IMG/VR virus record: IMGVR_UViG_3300020577_010124 | Location: 96,001 to 160,000 of that record | Direction: 5' to 3' (one strand) | Length of the DNA: 64,000 nt | DNA from: a virus | Taxonomy: Duplodnaviria; Caudoviricetes | In this document: one piece after another, positions 44,235-49,726 of the stretch | Position numbering within the stretch: the first letter of the stretch is position 1 | Layout: each line of letters opens with the position of its first letter | Position numbers and translations under genes: made by a program | Notes under the pieces: generated by a model | Told to the model about the DNA's origin: nothing | Databases searched by the model: none | The model's input: only the letters and a program-made list of their open reading frames with translations

Positions 44235-44581
44235 GATACGTCAGGAAACAAATCGTTGTCAAAGTTTTGGCGGACGAGATTATAGAAGATCTCTCTGTTG
44301 TAAAACAGCTTCTTGAAACATTTCAACGTTCTCGAACGGACGCTCATATTAGTTATCGCAAAGATCAATTTGAAACAGCGACTGTTCATGATAGAGTCAG
44401 AATAACGGCTGTTCATGAAAACAGTTTTGACCTGACGGTTATCAATCAAACTCATACAATGAATGTCAAGAAGATTCCAATTGCTGACGTTGATTTTATT
44501 TCAACGACGGTTTCTCCAAATGAAATCTTTGTCAAGAAAAGCGGCATCGTTGAAAAAGGCGACACGCTGGATTTGGCGTGA
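44231..44581 (+). CDS. Hypothetical protein
   Basis: ATGA overlap; ends in TLDLA. Confidence 0.55.
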   Translation: MRYVRKQIVVKVLADEIIEDLSVVKQLLETFQRSRTDAHISYRKDQFETATVHDRVRITAVHENSFDLTVINQTHTMNVKKIPIADVDFISTTVSPNEIFVKKSGIVEKGDTLDLA

Positions 44582-44628
44582 GTTGTGGGTTGCTGTCTGA
44601 AAAAGCCTCTAACGCCGAAAATCTGAGC

Positions 44629-46029
44629 ATGAAGATAACCAACAACGCAGATTTTGTACACTTACATAACCACTCCGAATATTCTCAGTTTGACGGTCTT
44701 AACAAAGTCTCGAACTTTGCCAAGTCAGCTAAAGAAATGGGCTTTAAGGCTCTTGCTTTGACTGACCACGGCAATGTTGGCGGCGCTATCAAGTTCATGC
44801 AGTCTTGTTGGAATAAGGATATCAAGAACTTTGATATCAAACCCATAGTTGGATGCGAGTTCTACCTGTCAAAAGACAGGCATATTCATTTCTCTGAGCG
44901 CAAAGAAGGCTCGAAGATCATCAAAGGTCAGACCGACGAGAAGAAAGGCAATCGTCATCTTGTTCTTATCGCAAAGAACTGGAAGGGTTGGCAGAATCTT
45001 GCTGCTCTCTCTCAACTGAGTTGGACCGAAGGTTTTTATCACAATCCTCGTATTGATTTACCCTTGCTAGCAAAGCATTCAGAAGGGCTTATATGCAATT
45101 CCGCCTGTCTTAGTAGCGTTGTCAACGCAAACCTTCTTCATGATCGTTTTGACGCTGCTAGAGCCGCCGTTGGAATTTTCAAGGATATCTTCAAAGAAGA
45201 CTTTCATCTTGAGGTTATGTATCACGGCATTGACGCTGAGGCGATGATTATTCCAGACATTATCAAGCTTGGCAAGGAAATGAATGTTCCAATCATCGCA
45301 ACGAATGATTGTCATTACTGCTCTAAAGAACAGGGACTATCTCAAGAGTTGTTGATGTGCATGAGTACAAGCAAGTGCTTGCATGATCCAAAGCATCTCA
45401 GGTTCCCATTCCATGAGTTCTATCTAAAGTCGGCAGCAGAGATGTCTCAAATCTTTGGGTCGCATCCTGAAGCTCTGCTTAATACTGTCATGGTTGCAGA
45501 TAAAGTAGATTCAAAGGATATCTATGACAATATGATTTCGGGTATTCGTTTGCCAAGATATAGAATTCCCGCAGGTTTCAACTCTCCCTTTGAGTATATG
45601 GAGCATTTGGCTTGGGAAGGAATGAAGAAGCATAATTGGACAGGTAGCGCTCCTCATGTTGAAAGACTAAAGAGAGAGCTTGCTGACGTAAAGGTTGCTT
45701 GGGATAATAACAAGTACGACTTTGCTACTTATTTCCTTATTGTTCGAGACTACATTCAAGAAGCAAATAATCGAGGCATCCTTACAGGTTGCGGTAGAGG
45801 TTCAGGCTTTGCAAGCGTTCTATTGAGAGTCATAGGCATTACTTATGGTCCAGATCCTTTGCTGTTTGATCTGATTTGGGAACGTTTCCTTGGATTCGAT
45901 GATAAGTATTTCTTGCAAGAAAGCGACTTCTTTGGAGAAGCTGTTGCCGAGAAGGTTGCCGATTCTAATGACGATCTATTCGAAGACAGAGACGTTTCTG
46001 ACGACCTGGGCGGCGTAGATAGATATTGA
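44629..46029 (+). CDS. dnaE: DNA polymerase III alpha, N-terminal piece (PHP domain + first part of palm)
   Basis: FVHLHNHSEYS.FDG, ALTDHG, KPIVGCEFY, HLVLIAKN, PRID, ATNDCHY, YFLIV.DYI, GRGS, WERFL, then an acidic tail and stop. Confidence 0.93.
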   Translation: MKITNNADFVHLHNHSEYSQFDGLNKVSNFAKSAKEMGFKALALTDHGNVGGAIKFMQSCWNKDIKNFDIKPIVGCEFYLSKDRHIHFSERKEGSKIIKGQTDEKKGNRHLVLIAKNWKGWQNLAALSQLSWTEGFYHNPRIDLPLLAKHSEGLICNSACLSSVVNANLLHDRFDAARAAVGIFKDIFKEDFHLEVMYHGIDAEAMIIPDIIKLGKEMNVPIIATNDCHYCSKEQGLSQELLMCMSTSKCLHDPKHLRFPFHEFYLKSAAEMSQIFGSHPEALLNTVMVADKVDSKDIYDNMISGIRLPRYRIPAGFNSPFEYMEHLAWEGMKKHNWTGSAPHVERLKRELADVKVAWDNNKYDFATYFLIVRDYIQEANNRGILTGCGRGSGFASVLLRVIGITYGPDPLLFDLIWERFLGFDDKYFLQESDFFGEAVAEKVADSNDDLFEDRDVSDDLGGVDRY

Positions 46030-46030
46030 T

Positions 46031-46882
46031 ATGGCAGATACGCTCATAAAAAGAGTAGGCGGAAAGGTGAAGATCAGAGAGTGGATCAAGTCCAATCTCC
46101 CTCATCACCAAATCTATTGCGAGCCTTTTGGCGGTAGCTTTGCTGTTGGCTTTATCATGCCAACACCTAATCTTACGTCTTATAGGTTGGTTCTAAACGA
46201 TAGCGATAAGCATGTATGGAACTTGTTTCGAGTTTTGAGGGACTATAGACAAGAGTTTTTGGAGAAGATTGCTGCTAGTCCTTATAGCAGAGAAGACTTT
46301 GATCGATCTGTAGAGTACATTCGTTCTAAAAGAGATTTTGAGAAAGAGAATCCTGTTGACTGGGCGAGAATGTATATCATTTACAATCGACAGTCCATGA
46401 TGGGAAAAGAAGACGGGACATGGGCTATCGCTCGGCAAGGTGAAAACTTCTGTCTTACTTGGGCCTCTATTCCGTCTCTTATCCGAGAAGTAGCAGATTT
46501 CTTCAAGAACGTTTTTGTAGAACGAATGGACTATAAGGAATGCATAGCCAAATGGGACAGTCCTGAAACTCTTTTTTATCTAGACCCTCCATACGAGGGA
46601 GTTGAGAAAGATTTTTATGAAGTCAATAAGAAAGACGGATTTGATCATAAAGGAATGGCCGACCTCCTGAAAACCATTAAGGGAAGCTTTGCTGTATCTT
46701 ACTATGACAGCAAGTATATTCGAGATCTTTATCCTGTTAGCGAAGGCTTCGTAATACATGAAAAGTCTGTTCTTAAACATATGCAGACTACCAAGAAGAA
46801 AGATTCCGTAACAGAGTTGCTTATCGTTCGAGAGAATAGTTGGGCAAAGCAGAATAGTAAAGAACGTTTTTGTTTTGAGTAA
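46031..46882 (+). CDS. DNA adenine methyltransferase (Dam-like)
   Basis: GGK, YCEPFGGS, LND, FYLDPPY, VSYY, ELLI. Confidence 0.9.
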   Translation: MADTLIKRVGGKVKIREWIKSNLPHHQIYCEPFGGSFAVGFIMPTPNLTSYRLVLNDSDKHVWNLFRVLRDYRQEFLEKIAASPYSREDFDRSVEYIRSKRDFEKENPVDWARMYIIYNRQSMMGKEDGTWAIARQGENFCLTWASIPSLIREVADFFKNVFVERMDYKECIAKWDSPETLFYLDPPYEGVEKDFYEVNKKDGFDHKGMADLLKTIKGSFAVSYYDSKYIRDLYPVSEGFVIHEKSVLKHMQTTKKKDSVTELLIVRENSWAKQNSKERFCFE

Positions 46883-46887
46883 ACACT

Positions 46888-47136
46888 ATGGCATATCACG
46901 TTAGTCTGATTAGAAAAGGCGAGTATGGTTGTATTTCTAAGATCCAAGAAGAGCTTGACGAGCTTAAGGATGCAACCTTGCAGAAAAACAAGATAATGGC
47001 TTTGATTGAGCTTTCCGATATGATCGGAGCTATCGAAGGCTTCTTGCAAAGAGAATATCCTTTTATTTCATTAGAAGACCTCAAGAAGATGTCTGACGCA
47101 ACTCGTTCAGCATTTATGGATGGAACAAGAAAATGA
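46888..47136 (+). CDS. Small all-alpha NTP-pyrophosphatase (MazG-like) protein
   Basis: KIQEELDELKDA...IELSD matches the EExxE...ExxD metal-binding pattern of MazG-type folds. Confidence 0.55.
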   Translation: MAYHVSLIRKGEYGCISKIQEELDELKDATLQKNKIMALIELSDMIGAIEGFLQREYPFISLEDLKKMSDATRSAFMDGTRK

Positions 47137-47735
47137 AATGGTTTACGGAGCATAATGATCTTAGAGTTATGGCCGACGCTAGAGACTACTATCTCTATAC
47201 GGAGAAGTATCGTCCTATTGAGGCTCCTTGGATTGTTAGTAAGAAAGCCATAATGATTACGGCTCCTGAAGAATGCGAACCATTTGTTCAGAATGAGTCT
47301 CTTGTTGCTTCGGGCGAGCAATCATTTATGCAGATGATTTTGGATGGGCAACTTAAACGAGGAGCGTACTTTACGATTACCCCTTGTTATAGACCAGCAG
47401 ATGCTGCGAGAAATGACGGATTGCATCTTGCTCAGTTTACAAAGCTTGAACTTATTGATTTCTATGAGAATGTTGAACCTACTCATGAAGATCTTAAGCG
47501 AATGATTGTAGGGGCGAAAAAGTTCATGGAAGATGCTAGAGGGGAAATGCTAGATATCGTGCGAGTTCCCGATTCAGAACATAGAGAATGTTTTACTTTT
47601 GAAAATTACGATATCATGACTGCGGGTCCAGGTGAAATAGAACTTGGTTCATATGGAATCCGACGACATCCCGATATTGGGTATTGGGTGTACGGAACGG
47701 GCGCTGCTCTTCCAAGATTAATGCATGGAGTCTAA
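47133..47735 (+). CDS. Stand-alone class II aminoacyl-tRNA synthetase-like catalytic domain
   Basis: Motif 1-like Y.PIEAP, LVASGEQSF, motif 2 TPCYR...H...FTKLELI, IELGSYG, motif 3 GTGAALPR; no anticodon-binding domain. Confidence 0.75.
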   Translation: MKWFTEHNDLRVMADARDYYLYTEKYRPIEAPWIVSKKAIMITAPEECEPFVQNESLVASGEQSFMQMILDGQLKRGAYFTITPCYRPADAARNDGLHLAQFTKLELIDFYENVEPTHEDLKRMIVGAKKFMEDARGEMLDIVRVPDSEHRECFTFENYDIMTAGPGEIELGSYGIRRHPDIGYWVYGTGAALPRLMHGV

Positions 47736-47740
47736 CGATA

Positions 47741-49726
47741 ATGCCAACTCTACAAGAAATCAAACAAGAACTTTTGGGCTTGGTTAAAGATCCGAGCCTT
47801 CTTCCTCTGTGCGAAGCTGAAATTAAGAAGATGGAATCGACCGAGGGATTGGACGATAAACTCAATCTTGAGAAGTTCTACAGTCTCTATAAGATGTCCA
47901 AGACTCGAAGCGACAATCATAGAAATGTTGTCAACTCATGGCTTGCTTATGCGACTGGAATGGTTACAAAGAAACCAGACGAAGGTTCAACCTTCTTCCC
48001 CAAGCGTCGTGCGTTTGCTAGAAAGAGTCTGCCCGACGTTGATAGCGACTTTGACTATGAGCGTAGAGGCGAAATCTATCAGTATTTGATTGACACGTTT
48101 GGACGAGAATACGTTGGAAATATTGGAACGTATTCAGGTCTAAAAACCAAGTCTTATGTTCGTCGCGCAATAAAGGCGATAGATCCAGAGAAGACATTCT
48201 TCAAAGGATTTGACTTTTGGAAGACAGAAACAAATGCATTAGGTGCTGAGATATTGGATTCACTTCCGCCTCAGTATGGAGCGAAGCTCAAGGTAAAGGA
48301 TGATCAGGGTAATGAACATATTATTGATACTGTTGCTGACGCTGCTAAATACTGTAAGAAATTCTCTTATTACATTACTAAGTATCCCTCTCTTCTTCAA
48401 CACTCTCATAGTATTGAAGGACTACTATCCACTTTTGGAGTCCATGCTGCTGGTATTGTCATATCAAGCGAGCCTCTTGGCAATATAGCGCCTCTTCGTC
48501 AGAGCAAGATTGCGGATAGCGCAACCGAAGAGGGTCCAAAGTATGCTTATGCAACTCAGTTTGAGTATAACGATCTAGAATTCCTAGGTCTAATCAAGTT
48601 CGATATTCTTGCTCTTAGTACGCTCTCTGTCATCTATCGTTGCATGAACATGATTGAGCAGAACTATGGAATCAAGGTCAACATCTACGACCTGCCTCTT
48701 GACGACAAGAAAACCTACGATCTTTACAAGAGCGGCAAACTAACGGGCGTATTCCAATGCGAAGAATACGGAATGCAGAAGACAATGGTAAACATGGGAG
48801 TTGACTCTCTTCATGATATCATGGCTGGAATCGCTTTGTATCGTCCTGGTCCTATGGACTATATTGAAACCTATTGCGCTCGAAAGCATGGCGTAGAGCC
48901 GATTGACTATTTCCATTCTTCGCTAAAGCCCTTGCTTGAGCAGCATCTAAAGAAGACATACGGACTTCCTGTTTATCAAGAACAGATTATGCAAGTATGT
49001 AATGCTGTTGCGGGACTTTCCATTCCTGAAGGTTATGTAGTTATCAAGGCTATTGGTAAGAAAAAGCCTGAGTTGCTACAGAAGTATCGTACTCGTTTTG
49101 TTACTGGCGCAAAAGAAACAAACGGTATCGAGCCAAAGGTTGCGGAAGGCTATTGGGATAAGGTTATTACGCCCTTCGCCGACTACGGATTCAATAAGGC
49201 GCATGCTTGTTGCTATGCATACAACTCATATGCGACGGCGTATTTGAAGGCCAATTATCCTGAAGAGTTTGTTGCTTCCTACTTGAACGTTGAAGTTATT
49301 CGAGCCAACTACGACAAGATTGCTACTCTAGAAAAGATGGCAGACGAAATGAACATTACGATTCTTCCTCGTCACATCAATACTTGTAAGCTTGAATACA
49401 CAATCGCCAAGAGAGCGGACGCTACGAATGGTGTTCCAGGGTCGGAAATCATGCCTTCTATCCGTTGTAAGGGTTTGAGTTTTTCCGCGGCAGAAGAAAT
49501 TGTCAAGCATCAACCATATGCGAGCTTGAAAGAGTTTGCAGAGTTTACGGATACAAAGCTTGTTGATATGAGAGCATTGGAAGCTTTGATTGAGGCAGGT
49601 TTCTTCAAGCCCAAGCAAGGTAGATCACGACCTGCTCAGGATATTCTTGACGAGTTTGAGATGATGAGAGAAGACCTTAAGAAGCTTCGCAAGCGAGGTA
49701 TCGAAGGCGGAAATATGTTTGAGTGA
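47741..49726 (+). CDS. dnaE: DNA polymerase III alpha, C-terminal piece (catalytic palm, thumb, fingers, HhH; no OB fold)
   Basis: SLPDVDSDF, HAAGIVI, IKFDILAL, GVFQCE, ALYRPGP, YQEQIMQ, YGFNKAH, YLKANYP, LEALIEAGFF. Confidence 0.93.
   Translation: MPTLQEIKQELLGLVKDPSLLPLCEAEIKKMESTEGLDDKLNLEKFYSLYKMSKTRSDNHRNVVNSWLAYATGMVTKKPDEGSTFFPKRRAFARKSLPDVDSDFDYERRGEIYQYLIDTFGREYVGNIGTYSGLKTKSYVRRAIKAIDPEKTFFKGFDFWKTETNALGAEILDSLPPQYGAKLKVKDDQGNEHIIDTVADAAKYCKKFSYYITKYPSLLQHSHSIEGLLSTFGVHAAGIVISSEPLGNIAPLRQSKIADSATEEGPKYAYATQFEYNDLEFLGLIKFDILALSTLSVIYRCMNMIEQNYGIKVNIYDLPLDDKKTYDLYKSGKLTGVFQCEEYGMQKTMVNMGVDSLHDIMAGIALYRPGPMDYIETYCARKHGVEPIDYFHSSLKPLLEQHLKKTYGLPVYQEQIMQVCNAVAGLSIPEGYVVIKAIGKKKPELLQKYRTRFVTGAKETNGIEPKVAEGYWDKVITPFADYGFNKAHACCYAYNSYATAYLKANYPEEFVASYLNVEVIRANYDKIATLEKMADEMNITILPRHINTCKLEYTIAKRADATNGVPGSEIMPSIRCKGLSFSAAEEIVKHQPYASLKEFAEFTDTKLVDMRALEALIEAGFFKPKQGRSRPAQDILDEFEMMREDLKKLRKRGIEGGNMFE

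Follow-up and report, generated by a model that had tools for sequence, protein, structure and literature searches.

What task is carried out by two small, overlapping genes that lie between the halves of a split DNA polymerase gene in a phage genome? The genes in question occur in a 64,000-nucleotide stretch of DNA (the window; positions 96,001 to 160,000 of IMG/VR virus record IMGVR_UViG_3300020577_010124), and the source record is a 170,562-bp fragment that is 34% complete by CheckV estimate. Open reading frames (ORFs) called on the plus strand encode an 82-residue protein that resembles the all-alpha nucleoside triphosphate (NTP) pyrophosphohydrolases of the HisE/MazG type (46888..47136; phrog_6408) and a 200-residue protein that resembles a minimal, SerRS-derived catalytic core of a class II aminoacyl-tRNA synthetase without its tRNA-binding arm (47133..47735; phrog_4806). 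The original prediction, made from the letters of the DNA, described them as a translationally coupled functional module. The coupling can be read directly from the plus strand, where the ATG of the 200-residue gene (47133-47135) overlaps the TGA of the 82-residue gene (47134-47136) in an ATGA at 47133..47136. The module is borne out on a much broader scale, since one gene is hardly ever found without the other and many genomes carry the two as a fusion.

A survey of gene neighbourhoods, which had been proposed as a check of this module, covers 114 loci, and at 110 of them both genes are on the same strand within 2 kb. Eighty of these loci were retrieved from IMG/VR with a profile of the synthetase core, and 79 have a MazG-like gene on the core's strand within that distance; the core of the lone exception is located at a contig end. 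The same arrangement is found in all nine annotated phages (9/9) and in 22 of 25 loci on contigs binned into metagenome-assembled genomes (MAGs), 13 of these 22 being fusions. The MazG-like gene resides upstream of the core in 44 of the IMG/VR loci and downstream in 35. Among sampled core homologues, 18 of 249 are fusions with the order core then MazG-like, and the MazG-like domain of these proteins begins 0-13 residues past a shortened motif-3 helix. Searches with tblastn recover the two proteins from 268 and 278 phage records with equal taxonomic spread. The pairing is essentially obligate: the genes are genetically inseparable and often encode one polypeptide.

Near-constant co-occurrence and natural fusion argue that the two genes specify one enzyme system, and the membership of both proteins in large conserved families argues that the ORF pair did not arise by chance. 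The products would be subunits of a single phage-specific system, very probably an obligate complex of two active enzymes. No third conserved partner emerges from all-against-all clustering of the ORFs in the 80 IMG/VR loci. Besides the pair itself, no gene family is present in more than 14 of these 80 loci, and the two commonest neighbour families lie on the opposite strand, where one overlaps the pair and the other abuts it, so that they are probably not real genes. A second copy of the pair was searched for in the genome represented by the window and was not found.

Adjacent copies of the two genes are carried by phi92-like phages of E. coli, T4-like phages of Acinetobacter, Morganella and Providencia, phiCbK-like phages of Caulobacter and Brevundimonas, and Ma-LMM01-like phages of Microcystis. 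They are also found in Bacillus phages G (gp286 and gp287) and BpSp, in the Certrevirus CR9 and in a Vibrio jumbo phage. The pair spans unrelated phage lineages, with representatives in four viral subfamilies plus further genera. A cellular origin, with copies in host genomes, was considered and rejected. In 185,579 species genomes the core is found at only the 25 loci mentioned above, all of which are on MAG contigs, 22 with the partner gene, and none of which is from an isolate. The core is confined to phages or phage-like contigs. Four records labelled as Campylobacter phages (MG065639, MG065645, MG065656 and MG065689; 146.4 kb) give the same tblastn match as E. coli Justusliebigvirus phages of equal size (52.5% identity, same score), and their host labels may be wrong.

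The 200-residue protein matches phrog_4806 with an E-value of 1.7e-30. Single-sequence searches of Pfam give a weak class II match (PF00152, 14.9 bits versus a cut-off of 25), and the core scores under the curated SerRS cut-offs (TIGR00414 and PF00587). For TIGR00414, the window core has no serS match at E-values up to 1, and a fused homologue (P0034) reaches 15.5 bits versus a cut-off of 301.65. A phmmer search of PDB sequences with the single protein gives no match, and a profile of the core family finds SerRS as the top match (E 7.5e-7). An AF2 model built with 108 homologues has a pLDDT of 94.6 and displays the antiparallel beta-sheet of class II synthetases, as judged by Foldseek and by VIA-align (Z 17-20 to SerRS, HisRS and GlyRS). 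Foldseek matches this model to the cores of PylRS, SerRS and PheRS with E-values of about 1e-9. VIA-align ranks SerRS first (Z 18-20; root-mean-square deviation (rmsd) 2.6-2.8 Å over 193-194 of the 200 residues), with HisRS and GlyRS as runners-up at Z scores of about 17-18, and the closest individual structures are SerRS-tRNA complexes.

The entire protein is matched by the segment 144-391 of Thermus thermophilus SerRS, which corresponds to the catalytic domain only. Neither the ORF nor the structural alignment reveals an N-terminal extension or a coiled-coil arm. The earlier claim that the protein has no tRNA-binding domain therefore stands. Nor is the core an ordinary full-length synthetase, as 200 residues without the arm are all that is encoded. 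It had also been credited with class II motifs 2 and 3. Both are present (R87...F102 and G188-T-G-x-A-x-P-R195), and so is motif 1 (Pro32), which that account had left out.

Similarity to the catalytic domain of bacterial SerRS, a class IIa enzyme, covers the fold of all 200 residues and extends to individual positions. In hhalign and MAFFT alignments with E. coli SerS, the motif 2 pattern TPCFRxE...HxF-K-E lines up with the core, E62 coincides with the glutamate of the SerRS TxE segment ('PTAE'), and E170 and S173 fall in the E-x-x-S segment (REISS). The Thr/Ser that precedes motif 3 is represented by T189, located in the GSG segment of E. coli SerS, and the motif 3 arginine by R195, both within the pattern G-T/S-G-x-A-x-x-R. 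The SerRS residues that match E62, E170, S173 and T189 are those that bind ATP, magnesium and serine in the Thermus structures. All four are conserved in at least 99% of the distinct core homologues compared (351 sequences), and P32, R87, F102 and R195 in 338-350 of the 351. Such constancy suggests strong selection to keep a site for ATP and a small hydroxy amino acid, and adenylation of serine or a serine-like substrate is fairly probable.

The core also departs from SerRS in several respects. It lacks the N-terminal coiled-coil tRNA arm, is about 55 residues shorter than the SerRS core, has a motif-2 loop that is shorter by about 4 residues and ends with a truncated helix after motif 3. Unlike SerRS, it is restricted to phages or phage-like contigs and has a constant MazG-like partner. 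On the strength of the alignments and the model, the protein is best described as a complete, minimal class II core derived from SerRS, without the tRNA-binding arm. N-terminal extensions of the core are found in Dolichocephalovirinae only, as in CcrColossus gp133 (L002:4740-5594) and Brevundimonas phage Bambus (L007:3524-4648). The extension of gp133 is a helix-hairpin-helix domain like that of the RNA polymerase alpha C-terminal domain. Its match to PF03118 exceeds the cut-off at 27.3 bits, and such a domain hints at tethering to nucleic acid or RNA polymerase.

HisZ is a class II synthetase paralogue that has lost adenylation and regulates a partner enzyme in the pathway of HisE (PMC9437257). 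By analogy, the phage core could sense serine and ATP and switch a MazG-like (d)NTP pyrophosphohydrolase on or off. The obligate and often fused association would suit a regulatory subunit, and the HisZ-HisG complex 5m8h is among the VIA-align matches of the core (Z 17.2). However, at least 99% of the 351 core homologues retain the arginines of motifs 2 and 3, the Phe that stacks on adenine and the Mg/ribose Glu. This conservation argues for catalysis, unlike the situation in HisZ, and makes a sensor improbable; the core is apparently active, with catalysis predicted from its residues. Assignment of the pair to a HisG/HisZ/HisE system was rejected for the same reason and because HisG (PF01634) is absent from this fragment and from five complete pair-bearing phage genomes.

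The 82-residue protein belongs to phrog_6408 (E 1e-31), a family of unknown function. As the original prediction stated, it is a helical protein with an EExxE/ExxD pattern, and the residues concerned are E21-E22-x-x-E25 and E41-x-x-D44, the signature of MazG enzymes carried on two helices. In the family alignment (A1), K18, E21, E22, E25, D28, E41 and D44 are invariant, as is H4. The set K18, E21, E22, E25, E41 and D44 is intact in 159 of 160 distinct homologues. Searches of Pfam and NCBIfam models (PF01503, PF03819 and TIGR03188) give scores below the cut-offs. PF01503, the PRA-PH (HisE) family, has sub-threshold matches to 31 of 34 homologues and scores 16.0 bits versus a cut-off of 21.3, and TIGR03188 scores 19.6 bits versus a cut-off of 42.7 (E 7.7e-4). 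A profile of the family gives chance matches only among PDB sequences, and its hhalign comparison with the single E. coli HisI sequence yields nothing informative.

Structure comparison agrees with the motif. The AF2 model (pLDDT 92.4) consists of a helical hairpin followed by two short helices. Its top Foldseek matches, all with E-values >1, are E. coli MazG (3cra), B. cereus HisE (1yvw; rmsd 1.7, 59 columns, 24% identity), a MazG-related protein of Thermotoga and MazG of S. solfataricus (1vmg). VIA-align scores of Z 5-6 are level with the generic background of helical hairpins. In the ESM Atlas, all structural neighbours outside the protein's own family are MazG, PRA-PH or HisIE proteins (TM 0.63-0.66). 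The MazG fold that had been claimed for this protein is thus in keeping with both profile and structure searches. It shares with HisE and MazG the EExxE...ExxD motif, the preceding lysine and the helical-hairpin core. Unlike HisE, it comprises only 82 residues, and the first helix is missing, with a family-specific N-terminal segment (G-Y-H...I-x-K-G-x-x-G) in its place. Motif and model together identify a miniature HisE/MazG-type NTP pyrophosphohydrolase whose predicted metal-binding site is intact.

The invariant K18 and H4 bring to mind EpmA, which aminoacylates the protein EF-P (PMC9437257). If the phage core acted in this way, it would aminoacylate a protein of the host or of the phage, perhaps even its own partner. 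In this case, though, K18 aligns with the region of the phosphate-binding lysine in HisE-type enzymes, and the partner keeps its full set of catalytic acidic residues. Moreover, the core is SerRS-like rather than LysRS-like, and there is no conserved target gene nearby. Protein aminoacylation of this type is very unlikely.

A further difference from HisE and MazG is the constant link to the SerRS-like core, whose place is taken in rare cases by a radical-SAM domain. Two metagenomic proteins, P0159 (332 residues) and P0160 (344 residues), combine this MazG-like domain with a radical-SAM domain (CxxxCxxC), and both domain orders occur. The MazG-like domain can therefore partner a second kind of enzyme. 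No relatives of P0159 or P0160 were found in viral contigs, and no radical-SAM fusion lies beside any core locus.

With both proteins assigned, a pathway can be proposed. The core would use ATP to adenylate serine, giving seryl-adenylate, or to activate a similar small amino acid in this way. Because it has no tRNA-recognition arm, the acceptor that then receives the aminoacyl group would be a non-canonical one. Within the same pathway, the MazG-like subunit would cleave a nucleoside triphosphate to the monophosphate and pyrophosphate. In the version we favour, the two enzymes would work in sequence on one nucleotide: the pyrophosphohydrolase would supply or process the nucleotide and render the step irreversible, and the ligase would join the amino acid to it, yielding an aminoacyl-nucleotide. 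The module would be expressed alongside early replication and nucleotide-metabolism genes and would probably serve nucleotide-pool manipulation or counter-defence. No PADLOC model matches either protein.

Sequential action is favoured because the phage all-alpha NTP pyrophosphohydrolases that have been characterised, T4 gp56 and MazZ, feed a monophosphate to the next enzyme. T4 gp56 and the MazZ of phage S-2L act on free (d)NTPs, and comparable logic links gp56 with gp42, MazZ with PurZ and HisE, which acts after HisG. In the gp56/gp42 and PurZ/MazZ systems, an all-alpha NTP pyrophosphohydrolase works alongside an enzyme that consumes ATP or one-carbon units to modify the monophosphate so released. 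The present pair has similar neighbours in clusters for nucleotide metabolism or replication. It is located between frd and td in Morganella phage MP1, near a helicase gene and nrdD in ESCO32, in the nrdC region of Lazarus, near a primase gene in MaMV-DC, near a thymidylate kinase gene in phage G and, in the window, between the halves of dnaE. In Citromicrobium phage RXM, MazG-type and SerRS-type genes have been annotated beside those for a dNMP kinase and ThyX (PMC8953757).

A serine-adenylating ligase coupled to an NTP-to-NMP hydrolase and acting on a nucleotide-type acceptor is the explanation we prefer overall, but this preference is tentative. One component of it, a free nucleotide that serves as acceptor or shared substrate and is acted on by the two enzymes in turn, is doubtful when considered separately. 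A more specific proposal is decidedly unlikely: that the pair makes a new class of phage metabolite, for example a 3'-O-seryl nucleotide or another seryl-nucleotide conjugate. In that scheme the product would be formed by a SerRS descendant that has become independent of tRNA, and the MazG-like subunit would supply or lock in the nucleotide. With this product the phage would seize control of nucleotide or translation metabolism in the host or disarm a defence system.

Several observations weigh against the preferred explanation. We know of no studied truncated synthetase paralogue that loads a free nucleotide. The window core has Ala89 at the position of the motif 2 'fRxE' glutamate, which is E or D in 88% of the 351 homologues. 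An aminoacyl-nucleotide would need further enzymes if it were to serve DNA, yet the 80 loci appear to hold no conserved third gene. Some loci are within tRNA arrays or beside RNA-repair genes, which points to RNA ends. The known acceptors comprise tRNA or one of its bases, a lysine in a protein, the thiol of a carrier protein, a small amine and ammonia (PMC9437257). As a separate detail of the window core, an Asp at residue 90 directly follows Ala89.

The neighbourhoods near RNA genes lead to the main alternative, a close rival that was absent from the original prediction and that we regard as possible though somewhat unlikely. Here the core would use the terminal adenosine of tRNA or another RNA without the SerRS arm, as part of a tRNA-maintenance or RNA-repair toolkit in which, for instance, 3' ends are charged or protected under host attack. 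For its part, the MazG-like subunit would handle either a nucleotide or a phosphorylated end as a step of that pathway. The core descends from an enzyme whose chemistry is transfer to the 3'-OH of A76, and its nearest structures are the SerRS-tRNA complexes noted above. Split PylSn/PylSc is an example of a bare class II core that functions with a separate partner protein. Against this rival, the core has lost the coiled-coil arm that SerRS needs to recognise tRNA-Ser, and its motif-2 loop is about 4 residues shorter than that of E. coli SerRS. In the 82-residue protein, the invariant acidic residues suit triphosphate catalysis and not RNA binding, and promiscuous serylation of tRNA would give mistranslation.

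Genomic context for a role at RNA ends is similarly divided. A tRNA gene is found within 5 kb of the pair in 17 of 60 viral loci, and several pairs reside inside tRNA arrays. However, 72% of the loci have no tRNA gene nearby, the tRNA regions of tRNA-rich phages span tens of kb, and the comparison has no matched control, so this association was not accepted as significant. Of about 115 loci, 6 that represent different lineages encode an RNA-repair nucleotidyltransferase of the RlaP family near the pair, and 3 encode a CCA-adding enzyme there, but RlaP is distant from the pair or absent in four of five complete genomes. Both genes, the latter with an HD domain, are just upstream of the pair in Cronobacter phage CR9 (L119:2249-6487). 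In phi92-like phages (ESCO32; L001:5828-6262) the pair is directly followed by a gene for a YqeY-like protein (PF09424) of the type found in the tRNA-binding tail of GatB, and phage G has a KptA/Tpt1 gene nearby. In addition, a 2022 survey (PMC9503650) interpreted a neighbourhood of the rV5 type, with a MazG-superfamily pyrophosphatase among its genes, as a kit for the repair of RNA ends, which would be consistent with such a role for the pair.

A synthetase core that is deprived of tRNA might instead use its enzyme-bound aminoacyl-adenylate to make Ap4A or other ApnN, as LysU does, and the MazG-like subunit might cleave or tune this alarmone. Class II synthetases form Ap4A when tRNA is absent (for LysU, see PMC9437257), a MazG-type enzyme could split Ap4A asymmetrically, and both active sites are conserved. 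Nevertheless, the synthesis and destruction of one signal by one fused polypeptide would be futile, and strict conservation of E62, S173 and T189 would be needless in a mere adenylate donor. There is only a small chance that the pair constitutes a dinucleoside-polyphosphate module.

The position of the pair in the window raises the further question of a connection with DNA polymerase. As first described, the two genes sit between two halves of dnaE. The N-terminal half (44578..46029, plus strand) encodes a PHP domain (PF02811, E 7.5e-42) and the first ~97 positions of the polymerase III alpha NTPase domain (PF07733, positions 1-97 of 260). The C-terminal half (47741..49726, plus strand) encodes the remainder of this domain (PF07733, positions 68-260), fingers (PF17657, E 3.3e-50) and a helix-hairpin-helix region (PF14579). 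Its start is likely ATG 47741, which is 6 nt past the stop of the 200-residue gene, because relatives align from residue 1-6 of the protein that begins there. The insert holds three genes, the first of which encodes a D12-class (Dam-type) N6-adenine DNA methyltransferase (46031..46882, plus strand; PF02086, E 2.3e-24; phrog_56). All five genes of this block are co-directional and tightly packed, with intergenic gaps of -4 to 5 nt, and no promoter-like or terminator-like signals within it rise above shuffled expectation. The split gene (window 44578-49726) is free of inteins and holds inserted genes.

The original prediction stressed the nesting of the pair inside the polymerase locus and drew on PurZ/MazZ/DpoZ as a precedent. 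In a scheme of this kind a dNTP modified with an amino acid would be produced by the pair while the normal dNTP is depleted, so that a substituted base is fed to the adjacent DnaE. Nesting of the pair in the polymerase gene, here and in three relatives, and the MazZ-type logic would fit. However, nesting is limited to this phage and three syntenic contigs (L014, L015 and L018; 67-73% nucleotide identity), or 3 of 80 viral loci, and the pair occurs in unrelated phage lineages. The five complete pair-bearing phage genomes lack DnaE, PurZ and a conserved third enzyme, and no kinase is present to rebuild the triphosphate. Base substitution is the least probable of the explanations considered, and a polymerase-linked function was rejected as a general property of the pair.

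Membership in the PurZ/MazZ/DpoZ systems fails as well. There is no consistent association with a polymerase, and PurZ (PF00709, adenylosuccinate-synthetase fold) is absent from the 170-kb fragment and from the five complete genomes. Unlike PurZ, the ligase described here has a class II synthetase fold and would activate a carboxylate, and no dedicated polymerase accompanies the pair. The gap between the DnaE halves behaves like an insertion hot spot. Spacing varies among the split-DnaE regions of the related contigs (L014:1853-7534, L015:1908-8160 and L018:1888-7525), with an extra 173-residue ORF at 3337-3858 of L014 and ~650 extra nt before the C-terminal half in L015.

Among synthetase paralogues put to new uses, EpmA, AsnA, HisZ, the amino acid:carrier-protein ligases and PylSc are likewise catalytic cores without the standard tRNA-binding domain. 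Unlike the phage core, none of these has a MazG-like partner, and at ~190 residues the phage core is far smaller than any of them. To our knowledge, it is the smallest class II synthetase core that appears to be active, with activity predicted, and the only one whose obligate partner is a nucleotide pyrophosphatase. A SerRS origin is shared by the amino acid:carrier-protein ligases (PMC9437257). No carrier-protein gene is among the recurrent families beside the pair in the 80 loci, although no profile search was aimed at carrier proteins.

Full-text searches of the literature turned up no functional study of the pair and yielded homology-based annotations only (for example, PMC8953757), and it goes unmentioned in reviews on jumbo phages and on synthetase paralogues. 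Present annotations are misleading. PHROGs and RefSeq label the proteins of phrog_4806 'histidyl tRNA synthetase', GenBank records label them 'seryl-tRNA synthetase', and the partner gene is called 'hypothetical'. Neither synthetase name suits a 190-residue core without a tRNA-binding arm, and 'histidyl' is a misnomer.

The window carries a further member of a paired family, unusually sited inside a split polymerase gene. With ~1,700 clusters of the core at 50% identity (1,730 by count), this is among the most widespread uncharacterised enzyme pairs of large phages. It is represented in T4-like, phi92-like, phiCbK-like, cyanophage and megaphage lineages, several of which have hosts that are tractable in the laboratory. 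Since natural fusions exist, for instance of the type of Microcystis phage MaMV-DC ORF129L, the question of what the pair makes can be addressed with a single recombinant protein. Identifying the product would extend the non-translational chemistry of synthetases by a new branch, and would probably reveal a new way in which phages deal with nucleotides, tRNA ends or host defences.

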